Source of the DNA: Malacoraja senta
Taxonomy: Eukaryota
Assembly: GCA_038087875.1 (NCBI GenBank)
Contig: CM075990.1
Coordinates: forward strand, 6,574,001-6,638,000
DNA: 64,000 bases
Direction: 5' to 3'
The notes below the pieces were generated by a model that did no database searches, was not told the origin of the DNA, and was given only the letters and a program-made list of their open reading frames with translations. Made by a program: the position numbers and the translations under genes. Each line of letters begins with the position of its first letter. Within the stretch, counting starts at the first letter, position 1. Below, piece by piece: positions 43,445 through 54,969 of the stretch.

Positions 43445-44468
43445 ATTAAGCCAATTAAATTTATCCTATCATGGATAGTTTAGTTTAGTTTAGTTTAGTT
43501 TAGTTTAGTTTAGTTACGCCCCCTTTAGGATACCTCCTTGTTCTACACGTTCCTCCTTCACCTTCCCTCCTACTGAAAATCAACCTGTATCTCTCTCTTC
43601 CTTAATTCTGATGAAGGATTGTGGACACAAAACATCGACTGTTTCTATTTTCTACGCATGCTGCCTGACTTGCTGAGCTTTTTCAGCGTTTTCTGTTAAT
43701 GTTTCAAATTTACAGAATCTGCAGCCTTTTTAATATATTTCCAGTCGGTATAAACTCACAGCGCTCGAGACCTGGGTCCGTTTCTGACCTCGGGTGCTTT
43801 CTGTGTGGGTGTTCTTCCTGTGACCATGTGGGTTTTCTCCGGGTGCTCCGGCTTCCTCCCACATCTCGAAGATGTGCGGGTCTGTCGGTTAATTAGCCTC
43901 TGTAAAATTGCCCCTGGTGTATAGGGAGTGGATGAGATGGTGAGATAAGATAGAACTTGTGTGAGCGGGTGATGGATGTTCAACACAAAATGCTGGAGTA
44001 ACTCAGCGGGTGAGACAGCATCTCTGGAGGGAAGGAATGGGCGACGTTTCAACGTGGGCTGAATGGCCTGTTTCATTGCTAAAGTAAATAATGTTTGATC
44101 TGAACTGTAATGGGAGCTCTTTGGTTTTATTACCTGCACACATGCCTGGAGATGACAGAATTCACTGCCGCTGTGCCCCGTGGTCTACTGTCTGCCTTTC
44201 TCCGTTAAGTACTAATCTGACAGACCTTTGATGAAAACACGATTTTCCACTCTGAAAGTCTGAGAGTAGTTAGGTTCACTTAAGTCATCTCACTCAGTAA
44301 AGTTGATTGATGGTGCAGATGCGACAGGATATATATATATCTATATATCTTTTTCAGAGATGCTGCCTGATGCGCTGAGTTACTCCAGCATTTTGTGTCC
44401 AGTTTTACGTTCAAAGTCAAATTTAGCATAATTTAATCAAATGGTAGGTCGAGTTCAACAACAGTAAC

Positions 44469-45613
44469 TGTCAAGTCAAACTGTAATGAAAGGTATTACC
44501 TGCCTCCAAGTTAAAGGGGGAGGAGTATTATGTATGTAATATAATGGGTGTTACCGGGCTCCAAGTTAAAGGGGGAGGAGTGTTAGGGATGGGATAATTA
44601 GGATAAGTAATTGGTGTCTTGTGATGTCTGGGGCAAGTACGCAGGAGCAAAAAAGACAAGGTGGCGTCCTGCAGTAGAGAAGCTTGTATGATTCCTCCCG
44701 TGTCCGAGCCTTTATTCAAGACTGTTCAAAGCATCCGAATACACAACAATTGGCGACGAGGATAAAACAACGAAGATAAGAACAAGGCCAGCAAGAAGAA
44801 TCAAAAACAAAAGTTAAAAATAGAAGTAGTATTTGGAAACAAGTGGAACAGCACCAAGCCAAAAGGGTTTGAATTGGCGCCAAAAAGAAGAAAGGTAGGA
44901 ACGGGAAGCAATAGCTCAGGGAAGAGCTAGGAAATCAAGCAGGGGCAGTAAGGGTCACCAAGCATGGTGTCAGCTTACCTGGAATGTATCCAGGGCTGTG
45001 CAGCCCACAGCCAAGCCCAAGCAGCAGCCACAGACGTCGGGTGGGGGCCTAGTACCGTGAAGGCCACGGACAGGTCCAGAAAAGCCACCGACAAGAGGCT
45101 GAGTCTTCAGCCCAACTGGGAACAGTCAACCCGGTGGGGGGAGAAAGCAGAGAAAGCCCGGTCGGGAGCAGAGTCAGCCCGACCGTGAACAGAGAAGCGG
45201 AGATAAGCCGAGTTACGCCCGGGGCTTTAAAAAAGGGCACACAGCACCGGAAGCGAGGAAAAGACAGAAGTTGACTTGCGGCTAAAAACGTGAACAGTAT
45301 AATCTAAGAGACTGTCCTAAAAACTGCCGCGATCGCCAGCGAAGGCATGCAGGACTGATTATCTACAGCACCCGATTGGCAGCCAGTTTTTCACCTGCTA
45401 AAAGACTAAACTGTTAAATACCTTAAGACCTACAACATCCAAATGCCTTCAAAGTAATGGCTGAAGCAATAAATCAAGTGAAACTGTCAATTAATTGCTG
45501 AATCTGCCAAAATAAAAGGAGGAAAAAAAATGGAAAAGAAGTGCTTTGGTCATTGAGTGAAATCCAGTTCATCATTTCGGGGAATCTGCACAAAAACATT
45601 AGAAGGCTTGACA
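44469..45613 (+). repeat. 5' LTR (1145 bp)
   Basis: TG...CA termini. Direct repeat of 52940-54112. aataaa signals near 45468 and 45511. Confidence 0.96.
45383..45394 (+). promoter_or_regulatory. Candidate LTR transcription start (Initiator) and self-primer sequence
   Basis: ccAgttt fits the Inr consensus YYANWYY. cagtttttcac (45384-45394) is the exact reverse complement of the PBS position. Confidence 0.6.
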
Positions 45614-45624
45614 GTGAAAAACTG
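45614..45624 (+). promoter_or_regulatory. Non-tRNA primer-binding site (candidate self-priming PBS)
   Basis: gtgaaaaactg lies directly after the 5' LTR. There is no TGG-initiated tRNA complement. It is 11/11 complementary to 45384-45394. Confidence 0.7.
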
Positions 45625-45679
45625 CTGTGACCAGGAGATCTGGAAACCTGGAAAAGAGACAGTTAAGTCAAGATAAATC

Positions 45680-48487
45680 ATGGCTGATGAAGTTACTGGA
45701 AAGTCAGCTGAGCAGCTCAAGGTGGAGAGGACAACAGCAAAATGGGCATTCTCTCGTCTTGTTAACAGCATCATTAGGAACCATAAAGAAATGTCTGAAG
45801 AGGAGCTCAGGAACAATTTCAACAAACTCATGCAAGAGGCCGAAAAAGTCATGGAAGCCAATGACGATGTGGAGGCTGGACTCATTGCAGAGCTGGAGGC
45901 GGAGCTGGACGCAGATGAGGAAGCTGTGTTAACTGAACAGCAAAAAGCCAACCTGGCAAAGACTGCAAAGGAGTGTGATTCGAAACTGAAGGAGGTCAAA
46001 GGGCTCTTCGACAAGGTACCACATAAGAGATTAGGATACAAACTTAAATCACACGGTATTGGGGGTTCAGTATTGATGTGGATAGAGAACTGGCTGGCAA
46101 ACAGGAAGCAAAGAGTAGGAGTAAACGGGTCCTTTTCACAATGGCAGGCAGTGACTAGTGGGGTACCGCAAGGCTCAGTGCTGGGACCCCAGCTATTTAC
46201 AATTTATATTAATGATCTGGAGGAGGGAATTGAAAGCAACATCTCCAAGTTTGCGGATGACACTAAGCTGGGGGGCAGTGTTAGCTGTGAGGAGGATGCT
46301 AGGAGACTGCAAGGTGACTTGGATAGGCTGGGTGAGTGGGCAAATGTTTGGCAGATGCAGTATAATGTGGATAAATGTGAGGTTATCCACTTTGGTGGCA
46401 AAAACGGGAAGGCAGACTATTATCTAAATGGTGGCCGATTAGGAAATGGGGAGATGCAGCGAGACCTGGGTGTCATGGTACACCAGTCATTGAAAGTAGG
46501 CATGCAGGTGCAGCAGGCAGTGAAGAAAGCGAATGGTATGTTGGCCTTCATAGCAAGAGGATTTGAGTATAGGAGCAGGGAGGTTCTACTGCAGTTGTAC
46601 AGGGTCTTGGTGAGACCACACCGGGAGTATTGCGTAGTTTTGGTCTCCAAATCTGAGGAAGGACATTATAGCCATAGAGGGAGTGCAGAGAAGGTTCACC
46701 AGACTGCTTCCTGGGATGTCAGGACTTTCATATGAAGAAAGACTGGATAGACTTGGCTTATACTCGCTAGAATTTAGGAGATTGAGAGGGGATCTTATAG
46801 AAACGTACAAAATTCTTATGGGGTTGGACAGGCTAGACGCAGGAAGATTGTTCCCGATGTTGGGGAAGTCCAGGACAAGGGGTCACAGCTTAAGGATAAG
46901 GGGGAAATCCTTCAAGACCGTGATGAGGAAAAACTTTTTCACACAGAGTGGTGAATCTCTGGAACTCTCTGCCACAGATGGTAGTTGAGGCCAGTTCATT
47001 GGCTATATTTAAGAGGGAGTTAGATGTGGCCCTTGTGGCTAAAGGGATCAGGGGGTGTGGAGAGAAGGCAGGTACGGGATACTGAGTTGGATGATCAGCC
47101 ATGATCATATTGAATGGCGGTGCAGGCTCGAAGGGCCGAATGGCCTACTCCTGCACCTATTTTCTATGTATCTATGTATCTATGTATCCAGGACACTCTA
47201 TGGGCAAACTTTGGAAATGTTGAATTATCCACCTCACTACAGACAGCAGATGGTGCATGTGAATTTGCTGCTGCCACCGCACCATCAAATAGCAACGAAG
47301 AAGCATATGAATTCATGCTTAACCACCTGCAGAAACTGGTAGAGACTGCAAAGGAGACGTACAGTCGGTGGAAACGTTGGGTCCCTCTGGATGAGCAAGA
47401 GAGCTTCCAGAAACACCTAAGAACACTCGAGCTTCTCGTCCCCAAGCTGGTTTCCAGGAAGGCTGACTTCATACTGGCAAGAATAAGGAAGTACGCTGAA
47501 GGATTAGCACAAACGGCGAATGCTTTCAATTATCCTTCACCAGCCATCAGACTGAGACCCACGGCCCTTCCTAAGTTTACTGGAAACAAGCGTGACTTTT
47601 ATAGATGGAGGAAGGATTGGGAAGGACTGCAAAAGCAAGGTGAACCCACTGGATCAAATGAGGTGAAGAAGGTTCAATTGCTGGACAGTCTGGAGGACAA
47701 AATTACAAGAGACCTCCGCCTCACAAGTTATAACACTGCAGATGATATCTTTCGTGTCCTAGAGAACCGGTTTGGAAATCAAACAGCTATTGCTATTGAA
47801 ATAGTGGAGGAGCTTCAAAGAATTCCACCTGTCAGAGGACATCAGCCACGTAAAATAGTGGAATTAATTCAAGCTGTGGAAAAGGCGCTTAAGGACTTGA
47901 GCGATCTCGGAGACACAGGCGCTATTAAAAATCCACTGATGACAAAATCAATTGAAACCAAGCTTCCAGAAACCCTCAAAAAGGAATGGCTGGTTTATGT
48001 AGCTGACAAGAAGAATGCTGTGGCACCAGAGAAACGGGTTGACAGTCTCTTGTCATTTCTCAAAGAGCAGGAGAGCATATACGAACCGCTCGAGCAACTG
48101 AGGGACGAGGAGCCGAGTAGAAAGGAAACTCGGACTGAACCAAGACATGGCAGAACCAAGTCTACCAAGTCAGGAAATGACCACACAAGTTGTGTAGTCT
48201 GTGGTGACGTAAAGCATAAAAGAAAGCTGTACTTCTGCAAGCAGTTTCGAGGGCTAAAGCTGACAGAGAAAAGAGCTGCAGGAAAGAAGTTGGGAGCATG
48301 CAAAAAGTGTCTTGAAGTTCATGATGATGGTTCATACTGCAAACCTGCATATCTGTGTAAAAATCAAATCTGCAAGGATGAACAGACTCCTGAGCATCAT
48401 AATTATCTGTGCCCCAATTATGAGATGAGGAAAAGCAGTGTGGATCAGAGAAGGAGTAAATTTGGTCCAGAGGAAGGTAAAGGCTAA
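45680..48487 (+). pseudogene. gag: BEL gag, interrupted by a LINE at 46007-47185
   Basis: MADEVTGK...KLKEVKGL joins in frame to IQDTLWANF when the LINE is removed. Contains LPKFTGNKRDFYRW and Cys/His clusters CVVCGDVKH..C, CKKCLEVH..C and C..C..HHNYLC. Ends at a taa stop at 48485-48487, probably a mutation in a formerly continuous gag-pol. Confidence 0.88.
46007..47185 (+). mobile_element. 5'-truncated CR1/HER1-type LINE (1179 bp) nested in gag
   Basis: FDKVPH...SGVPQGSVLGP...SKFADDTKL RT motifs, a CR1 C-terminus with frameshifts, a 3' UTR and a (CTATGTAT)n tail. Confidence 0.95.
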
Positions 48488-51400
48488 AAGAAATATACAG
48501 TGGACCAAGAGGAGTTTTTTAGCAAACTTCCACCAGAGTTGGCAAAACAATGCCGAGATGTGTTCTCCAACACTGCATCAAGAGCCTTCAACACTGCAAA
48601 GGATCAGCCAAGCCTCCTAAAAGAAGGTGGACTTCAAGAGCACCCAGTGATTATGATGCTTCTGGAGGTCGTAGCAAATGCTGGACAAAAGGTTGGGACA
48701 TTAATTGACTTGGCTTCAGATACCAACTACATAACTCACAAGGCTGCGAGTAGACTGAACCTTAGGAGTGAAGACATCACGCTTATCGTCCATGGAGTTG
48801 GGGGGATGAAGGTCCACGTAGAGACGAGGCGCTACCTTCTAAAGATCCGAGTGAAGACTCCCAAGGGCACACTCAAGTCGCACCAGTTAGTTTGTTATGG
48901 ATTGGACAGCATTGCAGATGTTCACAAACATGTGACACCACAGCAGCTGCAAAAGTTATTTCCAGACGTCCCACTTGAGGAACTTGTGAGACCAAAAGAG
49001 ATACATTTGCTCATAAGCCATAGAGAAGGTCAGCTAGCGCCTCAGAGGATTAGAACTGTTGGAGATCTCATTCTGTGGGATGGACCACTGGGAAAGACTG
49101 TTGGAGGTTGTCATCCTGAGCTGTTTGAGAAGCTTACCATGTCAGCCCACATGTCCAAAACACACTTCGCAAGATTAATGAGAGCAGCTGCTTTAAAGTA
49201 TGAGGAGCTCACTCACGCAGTCCCTGAGGAACTTTCACCAAACGAACAGGTCGCCGTCAAAGTCCAGAAGTCACGTACATCAACCGCCAATCGGGACTTC
49301 TTGGATTGGTGGAAGTGGGATAGCATTGGAGCAGCATGCGAGCCAAAGTGCGGGGATTGCCGCTGTGGAAACTGCCAGCCAGGCGGAAAAGAAATGACTC
49401 TTGCTGAAGAGAGAGAGCTCGAAGTGGTTAGGGAAGGCCTCACCTACGTAACAGGAGACCGTCACAGTAAAGATCCACATTGGCATGCTAGCTATCCTTG
49501 GCTGGAAGACCCAGCTTCTCTACCAAAAAATAAAAGGACAGTGGAAGCCACATTTCTCAGGACGGAGAGGCAGCTATCCAGAGAACCTGAATGGAAAAGT
49601 GCCTACACAGCTCAGGTGCACGACATGGTGGACCGAAAGGCTGCAATCAAATTGTCCGAAGACATGATTGCAAACTGGGAGGGACCAGTGTGGTATGTGA
49701 GTCACCTAATTGCTCCAAACCCCCACTCTGTCACGACCCCAGTGAGACTAGTGTGGAACAGCAGTCAAAAGTGCAATGGTGTCAGCTCAAATGATTTGCT
49801 GATGAAAGGTCCAGACGTCCTCAACCAAATTCGTGCCGTCCTCCTCCAATTCAGAGGCGGAATCTATGCTGCTCTGGGAGACATAAAGAAGATGTATAAC
49901 TCAGTCTGGTTGGAGGACCGTGAAGTACACTTACACATATTCCTCTGGCGAGATTCCGAGAGGAGCTGGGAGAGTATGCTAATCTTCCTTCTTTTACCCA
50001 CCTCAAGGATGAGCAGCAAGTACTCCAGAAAGACAGCTATGTTGACGACATCCTCACATCTCACAACAGCCTCGACCAGTTGAGAATCATCACAGCAAAT
50101 GTGGAACGAATCCTGAAAGCTGGTGGGTTTGAGCTCAAGCCTTGGGTTCTGTCTGGCCAAAGTGGGAAGAAGGAGGACAGTGGTACTTTAAAGAAAAGCA
50201 CAACAAAAACCATGATCCTACCAAACCAAATGCATGATGATGATAAAAATGCACTTGGTCTGGGCTACATTGTTGAAGAGGACATGCTCCACGTTATGGT
50301 GGGAATCAATTTCTCCAAGAGAAAGAAAAAGATGCGGCTTGGTCAAGGCCTTCTACAAGAGCAAATCATAACTCAGACGCCAAATCCCCTAACAAGAAGA
50401 GAGCTTCTCAGCCAGGTAGCAGGGCTATATGACCCCATCGGCATAGTGGCTCTTGTTAAGCAAAAGGGAGCGATTCTAGTACGCAGAGCTTTCCAAGAAG
50501 CAAAAGAGGGAAGCTGTTCGGTCAGAGACACATGGGACGTGGCACTCTAAGATGGACTCAGGGAGGATGCAATTAAGCTCTTTGAAGAGTATGTACAACT
50601 TGGAAAAGTCAAGTTCGTCAGGGCACTGACTCCCTCTTGCTCCGCAACTGAACTCTTGGGGATCACCTTTTCTGACGGAAGTGAGCACACCTACGGGGCG
50701 GTGATGTACCTGAGATGGGATTCAGACCATGGCCCAATTGTCAGACTTGTGGAATCCAAGGCCAAGTTAACTCCCTTGGACCACAGAGGAGACGCTGTTA
50801 AAGCAGAGATGTGCGGAGCAGTGTTCGCCTCACGCCTGAGGAAGTATTTCGAGCTACACAGTCGAATTCAAGTGGAGAAGTGGTATCATCTTGTGGATAC
50901 CCAAACAATCCTTGGTGCAATACAGCGAGAAAGCTACGGATTTCACACATTCTTCGCCAATCGGATTGGAGAGATTCAAACAAGCACCAACATTCAAGAC
51001 TGGCGGTGGATTCCTGGCCCACAAAACATCGCTGATGTAATCACCAGAGGTGCCAGCCCTCAAGACCTTGATCAGTATTCGGAGTGGCAAAATGGACCGA
51101 AGTTCCTGGTGTTGCCTGTGAGTGAGTGGCCAATAAAATCAGCTAAGGAACTGGCTGCCACTGCCAGAGAGAACATCGAAAAGTTACAGAAGAAAGCTTT
51201 TGTTGCAGCACTATCAAGAGCCAAAGTAGAGAAACAAGAACCGGAACCCACAAACCCAAAGAGACCACCTGCAGGGTCAGCTATTCACAACCTTGTTGAT
51301 GTCAAGCGGTTCAGCATTCTAACTTGACTGATCAAGACAGTCGCATGGTATTGGAGAGCAGCGAAGGGTTTCTTGGCAAGGAAAAAGCCCTAAACGATCC

Positions 51401-52874
51401 AAAGTGGGAGGCCATCTCTTTGACAGGAGTCATTACAGTAAGAGAACGAGAAAATGCTCTAAAAGACATTTTTTTGTGCTGCGCAATTGGGCACAACTTT
51501 CCCAAGCACCACAACGGATCGACTGGTAGCCTATGAAGACCAAGATTCTGGGCTGATGGTTTGTGGTGGCAGAGCTTTGAAGAGGATAATGTTGCTGTTC
51601 CCATCCTGCCCGTTGATGCCTGGGTGTCCATGCTGCTAGCTCGGGAGGCTCACAGGGAGAGTCATGACGGAGTGGCTGGGACCTTGCTTAAAATGAGAGG
51701 AAAGGCTTGGGTCATAGAAGGAAGGAGAATTGCTCAAAAAGTCGTTGATCACTGCATAATCTGCAAGAAAGCAAAGGCAAAGAAATGTCAACAAGTAATG
51801 AGTGATCTGCCGCTTGAAAGAACTGAACCTGCTGCTCCTTTTGAGTTTACAACAGTAGACCTCTTTGGACCCTACCACGTACACGATGACGTCAAGAAGA
51901 GGGTAAAACTCAAAGTCTGGGGAGTTGTCTTCTGCTGTATGGCCAGCAGAGCCATCCACACAGAGTTAGTCAACACCTTATCAAGTGAAGGGTTTCTGAT
52001 GGCTTATCAAAGATTCACAGCAATCCGTGGGCACCCCAAGAAGATCTGGTCAGATCCAGGCACCAATTTTATTGGCGCAAAACCAGTCTTAGAGGAACTA
52101 TATAGATTTTTGGACAACCTGGACAGAGCAGCTTTGGAGGAGAACGCAGCTAAAAATGGAACAGAGTGGATGTGGAAAATCCATCCTGCTGAATCTCCAC
52201 ACAGAAATGGCGCTGCGGAAGCTGCTGTGCGTGTTGTGAAGAGAGCGCTCCAAAGTTTTGGAAAAGAATCGTCACTCAGTTATAGTGAGTTTCAGACAGC
52301 TCTTTACGTGGCAGCCAACCTGTCAAATGAACGTCCGATCAACGCCAGGATACAAAGCCGGGAAGACTGCGTTCAGTACATCACACCAAATACTCTTCTG
52401 CTTGGCCGAGCATCTCAGTGCGGAGACATCAAGACTTTTGACTTTTCCAGCTACCCCTACAAAAGACTTAGAACAATGCAGTCAGAGGTGAACAAGTTTT
52501 GGAAGAGCTGGAGCCAACTCGCCGGTCCTAACTTGTTTATAAGGAGCAAGTGGCACACCACTCAGAGAAATGTCACTGCCGGAGACATTGTCTGGTTAAG
52601 TGACCAAAATGCACTGAGGGGGCAATTCAAGCTGGGCAGAGTCATCAGCTCCAATCCAGACCGCAAAGGCATCGTGAGAGACGTTAATGTACGGGTCTTT
52701 CCAAGTTACTCCATTCCTCTGACAAAGGCTTTGAAAGGAAGGGCAAGGCATTCCACTCAGGGGAAGGACAGGATCCAAGCCACGATTGTTCACAGGGATG
52801 TTAGGCGGCTGGTTGTCTTGCTTCCAGTAGAAGAACAAGACAGCAATGCATCAGGAGACCAAGTTCAAACCTAG
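48488..52874 (+). pseudogene. pol: BEL pol (protease, RT, RNase H, integrase), disrupted
   Basis: Protease-like LIDLASDTNY. RT motifs GDIKKMY and SYVDD (YVDD at 50038-50049). RNase H FSDGSEHTYG. Integrase HRESH..CIIC, DLFGP, SDPGTNF, NGAAE. Frameshift near 49940, stop at 50548-50550, and further lesions at 51320-51560. Confidence 0.92.
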
Positions 52875-52929: not shown

Positions 52930-52939
52930 GAGTGGGAGG
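52930..52939 (+). promoter_or_regulatory. Polypurine tract
   Basis: gagtgggagg lies immediately 5' of the 3' LTR. Confidence 0.8.
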
Positions 52940-54112
52940 TGTCAAGTCAAACTGTAATGAAAGGTATTACCTGCCTCCAAGTTAAAGGGGGAGGAGTATT
53001 ATGTATGTAATATAATTGGTGTTACCGGGCTCCAAGTTAAAGGGGGAGGAGTGTTAGGTATGGGATAATTAGGATAAGTAATTGGTGTCTTGTGATGTCT
53101 GGGGCAAGTACGCAGGAGCAAAAAAGACAAGGTGGCGTCCTGCAGTAGAGAAGCTTGTATGATTCCTCCCGTGTCCGAGCCTTTATTAAAGACTGTTCAA
53201 AGCATCCGAATACACAACAATTGGCGACGAGGATAAAAGAACGAAGATAAGAACAAGGCCAGCAAGAAGAATCGAAAACAAAAGTTAAAAATAGAAGTAG
53301 TATTTGGAAACAAGTGGAACAGCACCAAGCCAAATGGTTTTGAATTGGCGCCAAAAAGAAAAAAGGTAGGAACGGGAAGCAATAGCTCAGGGAAGAGCTA
53401 GGAAATCAAGCAGGGGCAGTAAGGGTCACCAAGCACAGTGTCAGCTTACCTGGAATGTATCCAGGGCTGTGCAGCCCACAGCCAAGCCCAAGCAGCAGCC
53501 ACAGGCGTCGGGTGGGGGCCTAGTACCGTGAAGGCCACGGACAGGTCCAGAAAAGCCACCGACAAGAGGCTGAGTCTTCAGCCCAACTGGGAACAGTCAA
53601 CCCGGTGGGGGGAGAAAGCAGAGAAAGCCCGGTCGGGAGCAGAGTCAGCCCGACCGTGAACAGAGAAGCGGAGATAAGCCGAGTTCCGCCCGGGGCTTTA
53701 AAAAAGGGCACACAGCACCGGAAACGAGGAAAAGACGGAAGTTGACTTGCGGCTAAAAACTTGAACAGTATAATCTAAGAGACTGTCCTAAAAACTGCCG
53801 CGATCGCCAGCGAAGGCACGCAGGACTGATTATCTACAGCACCCGATTGGCAGCCAGTTTTTCACCTGCTAAAAGACTAAACTGTTAAATACCTTAAGAC
53901 CTACAACATCCAAATGCCTTCAAAGTAATGGCTGAAGCAATAAATCAAGTGAAACTGTCAATTAATTGCTGAATCTGCCAAAATAAAAGGAGGAAAAAAA
54001 TGGAAAATAAGTGGTTTGGTCATTGAGTGAAATCCAGTTCATCATTTTGGGGTGGATGAATCAGATCCCTTTCAAGCGGGGAATCTGCACAAAAAGATTA
54101 GAAGACTTGACA
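52940..54112 (+). repeat. 3' LTR (1173 bp)
   Basis: Direct repeat of the 5' LTR with an extra 29-bp segment near the 3' end. Confidence 0.96.
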
Positions 54113-54969
54113 GTAACGATTGTCTGAATTCCACCAATATCAATCTTAAAGTGAATCAAAAGAATTAGGGGCAAGATTCTGGATCTTGACCAGTCTCTCT
54201 CCCCAGGAGACCTCACCCACTATTGCCCAGAGCCTCTCCACAGGAATGTCAAGTCCCCATTTACACCTACCTTTTCCTGCTTCTGCTTTTCCACCGGTAT
54301 ACTGGGTAGAAAGAGTACAGGTACTCATATTCTGTTAAAAGTCATTTAATGCTTTTGTTTGAGAAGTCAACTCTTTAAATATTGACAAAAAGTGCTGGAG
54401 TAACTAGTGAGTCAGGCAGCTTCCTTGGAGAATGTTGATAGGTGAGATTTCGGATCGGACCTAAAACATCACCTATCCACATTCTCCTGGGATGCTACCT
54501 GACCCATTGAGATACTTTGTGCCTTTTTTATGTTCAAAGTCAAATTTAACATAATTTAGACACAAAATGTTGGAGTAACTCAGCGGGTGAGGCAACATCG
54601 CTGGAGAAAAAGAATAGGTGACATTTTGGGTCGAGACCGTTCTTCAGACTGAGACTCCAGCACTTTGTGTCTTTTTTGTAAACCAGTATCTGCAGTTCCA
54701 CATCTCTGCTCTTTAAATGTTGTGCTGTATTAGTGTTGGGTGTGGGAGGAAAAGTTTAATCTATTTACATTTGAAGTACTGGCAGTGGCTCAGAGATTTA
54801 GAATGAAGGCTTGTATTATATAGCACCTTTCAAATCCCTATTAGAACATCCAAAAGCACTCTGCATTCAATGTACTTTGCGTGAAATGCAGATATTACTG
54901 TAATGTAGGAAGCCCAGGAGCCAAGTTGCACACAGAACATTTCCACAGACATCTGGCGATGGTGACATT

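Follow-up and report, generated by a model that had tools for sequence, protein, structure and literature searches.

The BEL/Pao retrotransposon in the window (the whole 64-kb stretch of DNA that was analysed) likely belongs to a lineage that primes reverse transcription with RNA of its own LTR. Judging from the sequences of the element and its relatives, this primer would be made by splicing in the ancestral state and would lie ready-made in the LTR of the window family. Independence from tRNA and priming by the element's own LTR RNA were the core of the original prediction, which appears to be the best reading of the data and is well supported by PBSs that lack TGG and by the covariation of PBSs with their own LTRs.

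The element lies on the plus strand between two copies of a 5-bp target-site duplication (TSD), GTAAC, at 44464-44468 and 54113-54117. Its LTRs, both with a TGT start and an ACA end, span 44469-45613 (5' LTR, 1145 nt) and 52940-54112 (3' LTR, 1173 nt) and are identical at 1124 of 1144 aligned bases (98.3%, pairwise alignment), the 5' boundaries being further supported by copies in the same genome. A stretch of 29 nt of U5 is missing from the 5' LTR at 45577/45578 and is present in the 3' LTR and in most other copies. Between the LTRs, an open reading frame at 45680-46009 represents the start of gag (homologues are about 2030 aa long) and is followed by a non-LTR retrotransposon fragment inserted in gag (46010-47185; Pfam RVT_1, E 5e-19), which is absent from the related loci L119, L127 and L179. 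This fragment continues the reading frame of the gag start, and the two form a chimeric ORF of 352 aa. The remaining gag-pol (47186-52874) is disrupted by stops, frameshifts and a small deletion near 49980, and a polypurine tract (52930-52939) precedes the 3' LTR. The window copy is a dead but young element.

Classification as BEL/Pao, whose named clades are Suzu, Sinbad, Pao, BEL, Tas, Flow and Dan, rests on pol. In the window element, Pfam matches to DUF1759, Peptidase_A17 (the Pao RNase H region), Integrase_H2C2 and DUF5641 follow one another in the BEL/Pao order, and the set recurs in homologues, many of which also have RVT_1; no Pfam match was obtained for the protease/RT stretch of the window element itself. 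Scoring of 7,999 candidates yielded 188 integrase relatives at E ≤ 0.001, and the 120 listed of these are 54-80% identical, the named ones being nearly all from bony fish. Judged by its proteins, the window element is BEL/Pao, though its PBS departs from the type described for this group.

At the edge of the 5' LTR, the sequence is as originally predicted: TGG is absent, the first one occurring ~27 nt downstream, and the 11-mer that adjoins the LTR end (45614-45624) is the exact reverse complement of 45384-45394 within the LTR, the predicted self-primer. The 11-mer occurs once in the window, and its reverse complement is found elsewhere in the window only at the corresponding position of the 3' LTR (53855-53865). 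Among 20,000 first-order Markov LTRs only 4 contained such a match, and none of 300 shuffled PBSs paired over the length reached by the window PBS; the complementarity is thus a real feature, with chance ruled out by both controls. Pairing was also predicted to continue for 3 nt past one bulged C, and it does (45625-45627 with 45380-45382), but this extension is weak evidence and uses bases upstream of the transcription start that had been proposed along with it. The PBS is stable among copies in the same genome: in 40 scored candidates out of 206, 30 loci were read, of which 21 are 5' junctions that all carry the same 11-mer (20 of the 21 also with the exact LTR site); the remaining 9 are 3' or solo LTRs. 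As these 21 closely related copies were retrieved by their similarity, the count speaks for stability and not for selection.

Folding predictions are sensitive to where the RNA begins. With a 5' end at 45384, pairs between PBS and primer have probabilities of 0.55-1.0 each, which drop to 0.34-0.66 (window) and 0.19-0.37 (copy L002) when the 5' end is 130 nt longer. The overall fold of RNA from 45384 is no more stable than that of shuffled sequences (z 0.02), and this global score is uninformative. A U5-IR stem beside the PBS is a trait of the Tf1/sushi self-priming group; the final 70 nt of the LTR are predicted to form stems of 6-10 bp in most clade C, clade D and fish-like elements and stems of no more than 4-5 bp in the window family, the sister subfamily, clade B and L190, both figures being given without a control.

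The absence of TGG extends to relatives of the window element. From the same genome, 51 stretches around BEL matches were fetched, of which 25 have a readable 5' LTR edge and 26 do not; TGG stands at the PBS start in none of the 25 readable 5' junctions, which come from four deep integrase clades. These clades (A to D, at ~30-35% identity to the window) are all fully supported in an integrase tree of 31 rows that comprises unnamed loci and database proteins and is rooted by midpoint only. Clade A contains the window element together with fish-like loci and proteins. L119, L179, L113 and L114 (no integrase match) and L066 (short match) were placed by DNA similarity or protein match. Metagenomes contributed 15 matched loci, of which 8 were read and 3 used (L062, L066 and L069); L067 repeats L066, L068 has no site within its contig, L065 and L072 have no LTR edge, and L061 shows 10 contiguous pairs with a donor that would lie beyond the contig end. 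An alignment search of viral contigs found no relative, and the one pattern match in these contigs (L076) was dropped as it lies inside an unrelated coding sequence. Likewise, no relative was found in the genome contigs collection, and the fish-type junction pattern had no match in the window's own genome.

Closest to the window family is a sister subfamily whose internal sequence is about 97% identical and whose LTRs carry an intron inside the complementary site. The LTR of one sister element, L119, aligns to the window LTR on either side of an insert of 376 nt, which opens with GTAAG, ends with a pyrimidine-rich tract and AG, and sits between the positions that correspond to 45385 and 45386. 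A GT..AG insert of 374-397 nt is present in 29 of the 30 sister loci read, and in the remaining one the donor falls outside the alignment. The insert is a real intron because integrated DNA exists that lacks exactly this segment: L179 has its own TSD and two LTRs that are 97% identical to that of L119 minus exactly 376 nt, and L180 and L181 are also without exactly the sister intron. By hand count among the 100 LTR rows listed of 138 matches, 75 are of window type, 21 bear the intron and 4 are of sister type without it, so that 4 of the 25 sister-type LTRs among these rows are intron-less. Pairing follows the spliced form: in the 19 sister 5' copies, the joined exon ends match the PBS at 11/11 positions in 12 copies and pair better than the unspliced sequence in 18. 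From the alignments with L119, other sister copies and L179, the window family is read as a derivative with exact intron loss (between 45385 and 45386), in which the predicted primer lies ready-made in the LTR.

Several side observations concern this group. Most of the integrase region (about 51460/51660 to 52740/52800 in the window) is missing from L119 (G000:C1:60803100-60813099) and L179 (G000:C1:184335300-184341500), which outside that region are 96-97% identical to the window; on account of this gap, such sister elements may depend on the window family for integrase. Stretches on G000:C1822 (e.g. 168729-176255) and C1157 (e.g. 317532-329314) appear to open with an intron-bearing LTR and to close with a window-type LTR, which suggests recombinant or nested elements. 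In two intron-bearing sister-type loci (L152 and L155), exon 1 ends in CCA, as in the window family, rather than in CCG, and this may represent an intermediate or ordinary CpG decay. The acceptor in the sister subfamily and in L061, L062, L066 and L069 is nearly always AAG, not CAG or TAG; AAG is a weaker acceptor form, and it might favour intron retention in the 3' LTR copy. Also abundant is a short BEL derivative with ~3 kb between LTR starts (L114, L115, L121, L125 and L126).

Introns split the primer site in other families as well. In clade B, the intron is 111 nt long and exon 1 supplies 4 nt of the site, in clade C it is 214-294 nt long and exon 1 supplies 5 nt, and the three fish-like metagenome loci show the same intron-split site. 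Across the intron-bearing elements, the joined ends form 11/11 pairs with the PBS in 10 of 10 (8 by Watson-Crick pairs only, 2 with one G-U), when the same 10 elements unspliced form 6-10 Watson-Crick pairs. When shuffled PBSs could use any qualifying GT-AG joint, pairing as long as observed arose in 0-1 of 300 trials for nine of these elements and in 5 of 300 for L120. The test is strongest in clades B and C, where the joint gains 2-5 pairs over the unspliced site; for the sister subfamily and the three fish-like loci the gain is 1 pair. The donor of the fish-like loci was picked by its look, and alternative donors in all three give pairing that is equally long or longer. Clade C also includes an intron-less lineage (L124, L188 and L189), with 12 pairs in the 3' LTR of L189. 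In clade D (L113, L114, L172 and L187), the site is contiguous (8-10 pairs) with no intron at that place, and a spacer of 4-6 nt separates LTR and PBS, which is longer than the self-priming model expects and is left unexplained by it. In L172 and L187, a stem of 8-10 bp closes at the LTR end.

The original prediction had proposed compensatory covariation in related BEL families as a check, and it was found across the four clades. In a comparison of 18 elements (excluding the near-duplicates L110, L112, L115, L121, L125 and L126, and the copies L127, L159, L161, L182, L183 and L188, in which donor, site or PBS is mutated), the element's own primer was the best or tied best partner for 16 of 18 PBSs; the two exceptions, L124 and L187, probably reflect decay. 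Pairing is weaker in several old copies (L124, L127, L159, L161, L183, L187 and L188). Compensatory changes occur at position 10 (T:A in the window family, C:G in the sister subfamily, where PBS and joined exon ends both differ to match) and at position 6 (L062 versus L066 and L069), L185 has one extra base on both the PBS and the primer side, and L113, L114 and L172 show two-sided differences at several positions. Kin share their states, and these data amount to a handful of independent covariation events and not to 18.

Where transcription starts bears directly on how the primer could be made. According to the original prediction, transcription starts at 45384-45385 and the first 11 nt serve as primer; this part is not supported. 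An Initiator does match the letters at 45384, but it is not conserved and a splice donor occupies the same position in the sister subfamily: the former exon 1 ended with the Initiator-like A (45385), for which the sister has a G. Since this "Initiator" coincides with a former exon joint, a start at 45384 is doubtful, and since the site straddles an exon joint in relatives, transcription has to start at least 2-6 nt upstream of the splice donor, and probably much further upstream to judge from the sequences. The degenerate TATA-position sequence TTATCTA exists at 45359 but differs in the sister subfamily. The proposed placement of the primer site upstream of the polyadenylation-type signals was borne out, the two AATAAA motifs lying at 45468 and 45511 (45468-45516). 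A bacterial promoter scan was discarded as not applicable.

Reads from four RNA runs were mapped on the intron-less window, a reference on which no intron joint is detectable, and their organisms F and G may not be the species of the window. No pile-up of read starts was seen at 45384-45385 in these runs, in which reads of the 5' and 3' LTRs are inseparable. In run X19 (strand uncertain), the depth is 2.6 at 45235-45287, reaches 56 at 45447-45499 and is down to about 5 beyond the LTR; this may reflect short LTR transcripts starting near 45260-45300, or the 3' ends of longer ones. Position 45341 is covered by 20 plus-strand X19 reads, and reads extend 40 nt and more upstream of 45384, although they may derive from 3' LTRs. 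All 35 plus-strand X19 reads across the joint carry the sister-type G at 45385 and no intron, which could fit splicing and equally the intron-less DNA copies that exist. A-tailed reads behind 45517 may result from internal priming on an A-rich tract.

The complementarity, the covariation, the intron and its exact loss from integrated copies are all read directly from DNA, and the following pathway would connect them. RNA polymerase II would start in the LTR upstream of the primer site; in intron-bearing families, splicing of a cap-proximal intron would then create an 11-12-nt joint, which would fold onto the PBS beside U5. A nuclease, probably the RNase H of the element by analogy with Tf1, would cut 3' of the paired stretch (after 45394) and leave a 3'-OH. 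Minus-strand strong-stop DNA would thus run only from U5 back to the cut, and the upstream part, including the intron, would be inherited from the 3' LTR copy. Finally, the new PBS would be made during plus-strand synthesis as a copy of the primer, so that primer and PBS would stay matched. With the cut 6-9 nt into exon 2, strong-stop DNA would never cross the joint, and the usual persistence of the intron would follow from its inheritance through the 3' LTR copy, while occasional splicing of that 3' copy would explain exactly intron-less offspring such as the window family. With some reserve, we favour a broader form of this proposal, in which the primer of several deep vertebrate BEL/Pao clades is absent from DNA and is assembled by the host spliceosome from two LTR exons: cap-proximal splicing would license replication, host splicing could gate it, and window-like families would have escaped by retro-copying the joint.

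A stricter parallel to Tf1 would keep the start at 45384-45385 and the first 11 nt as primer, leaving relatives with a first exon of only 2-6 nt. In nearly all families, pairing is indeed limited to 10-12 nt, which is what an RNA beginning at this site would give, the predicted fold is cleanest with that start and the clade D site is contiguous; yet this version requires three clades to have micro first exons of unequal length, places a start at an A that is a G at the sister's splice donor, next to a TATA-like word that is not conserved, and leaves the bulged 3-nt extension upstream of the transcript. The lack of a start pile-up and the reads 40 nt and more upstream, even if some come from 3' LTRs, further weigh against it, and we regard it as unlikely. 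We give about as little credit to priming in trans, by which unspliced genomic RNA would take its primer from a short spliced LTR transcript that stems from a solo LTR or is joined from a 5' donor to a 3' LTR acceptor. Being a variant of the preferred explanation, priming in trans overlaps with it in confidence. Intron retention would then not require the two LTR copies to be spliced differently, 3' and solo LTRs are numerous, and the peak of RNA depth at 45290-45550 with a ~tenfold fall into the internal part is what short LTR transcripts would give, but this pattern may be 3' bias or a limit of mapping, and the tight covariation of the PBS with its own LTR fits folding in cis more simply.

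The most serious point against self-priming is a fit to tRNA-Glu(TTC). A tRNA 3' end used as primer requires TGG in the PBS, and TGG is absent. The scan against 37 host tRNA genes (8 anticodon classes, plus a second Glu(TTC) type) uncovered a partial match of the window PBS to a tRNA-Glu(TTC) half (9/11, with a 7-nt run, within these 8 classes). For most PBSs, the best tRNA fit is indeed a tRNA-Glu(TTC) 5' half whose end lies at the anticodon loop, and the L187 PBS matches it at 11/11 positions with one G-U, better than it matches its own LTR. Priming by this half, cut at the anticodon loop, with the LTR match being secondary, would account for the first 6-7 PBS bases, which are common to clades A, B, C and L187 and pair with that loop, and half-tRNA priming has precedents in Osser, Bryco and Bianca (PMC6317226, as far as the accessible part of that source goes). 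However, a PBS recopied from a tRNA should match it, whereas each family has its own fixed state at positions 8-11, in line with its LTR: position 8 mismatches the tRNA in 21 of 21 window-family copies, and L062, L113 and L114 have lost the tRNA match but still match their LTRs. A second Glu(TTC) type, seen with a loose genome pattern for tRNA-like anticodon arms that was itself at chance level (364 matches versus 464 in the control), fits over 6 nt only, and the intron-spanning joint would be left unexplained. We therefore hold tRNA-Glu priming to be quite improbable today, and the shared 6-7 bases are possibly a relic of ancestral half-tRNA priming. Least credible of all is that priming occurs at a tRNA-Ser-type site in U3, or that the complementarity is due to chance or serves packaging or strand transfer. 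A 13-nt site complementary to the tRNA-Ser(GCT) 3' end with CCA does occur in both LTRs (44751-44763, and at 53222), but priming there would not give the observed termini and TSD, the LTR edge holds no other primer site, the sister subfamily has transposed without it, and chance is excluded by the shuffled PBSs and Markov LTRs.

This tRNA-Ser-type site is part of a U3 segment (44516-44763, with a second copy at 52987-53234 in the 3' LTR) that looks like a captured Ty3/gypsy end, with two polypurine tracts (44516 and 44571) and a short LTR-like stretch. The segment is absent from the sister subfamily, and it retrieved 624 candidates in the own-genome search versus 206 for the R-U5 piece. In the four RNA runs, whose organisms F and G may not be the window's species, abundant reads fit only this piece. 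It is found four times at a 6016-nt spacing in G000:C840:21444-39732, possibly a tandem array of elements.

If correct, our reading would extend self-priming to a third LTR superfamily and would add a primer made by splicing, a mode for which no description was found in the literature searched. It would also account for an LTR intron being kept though reverse transcription should erase it, and it would tie transposition to host splicing control. By contrast, tRNA priming of spliced RNA would remove the intron in each cycle. BEL elements of this kind would be missed by PBS searches based on tRNAs. The window family and its intron-bearing sister would form a natural pair in which to see the effect of intron loss.

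In the literature covered, neither self-priming of BEL/Pao elements nor a splice-made primer was found; Repbase Reports, GyDB and most subscription journals were outside this search, and an earlier note may exist there. The main text of the main BEL/Pao survey (PMC3118150) and the Sinbad paper (PMC554778), in the parts of each that were accessible, make no mention of PBS, tRNA or priming, and the accessible parts of PMC3601003, PMC5443660, PMC13524379 and PMC3286476 hold nothing further on BEL priming. The ICTV account of Belpaoviridae describes an 18-nt PBS for the 3' end of tRNA-Arg or tRNA-Gly, with the host tRNA as primer, and calls replication in this family poorly understood (PMC8742986). 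The window element resembles these viruses in LTRs within 0.2-1.2 kb, PR-RT-RH-IN gag-pol order and polypurine tract (PMC8742986), and differs in that the 18-nt tRNA PBS is absent from it and from 25 of 25 readable junctions; this departure is not evidence against a placement that is based on proteins.

Other systems share part of its features. Half-tRNA-primed Ty1/copia elements (Osser, Bryco, Gymco-II and Bianca), which use half of tRNA-Met or tRNA-Ile according to the part of PMC6317226 available to us, are similar in having a PBS without TGG, and the first 7 nt of the window PBS pair with the tRNA-Glu(TTC) anticodon loop; in the window lineage, however, the PBS follows the own LTR and not a tRNA. 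In the plant Ty1/copia TAR lineage (Houba and Osr-1), self-priming was predicted from sequence, as it is here, which implies that it arose outside Tf1/sushi; TAR elements have the copia domain order, and the available portion of the source describes no LTR intron (PMC6317226). The closest functional parallel is given by the self-priming Ty3/gypsy chromoviruses, that is Tf1/Tf2 of Schizosaccharomyces pombe, Tj1 of S. japonicus, the Tf1/sushi group and Tcn1, with RNase H of Tf1 cutting between bases 11 and 12 (accessible parts of PMC7175516, PMC4600332 and PMC6317226). Like them, the window element lacks a tRNA site and has an 11-nt PBS at the LTR edge that is complementary to its own LTR. Unlike them, it has Pao-type domains and no Ty3/gypsy chromovirus pol and is not a member of that group, and its site, which straddles an exon joint in relatives, is probably internal to the transcript, whereas no splicing step is described for Tf1 in the portions of those sources at hand. 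The window element would thus prime in the manner of Tf1, yet it belongs to BEL/Pao, with a PBS unlike the one described for that superfamily.
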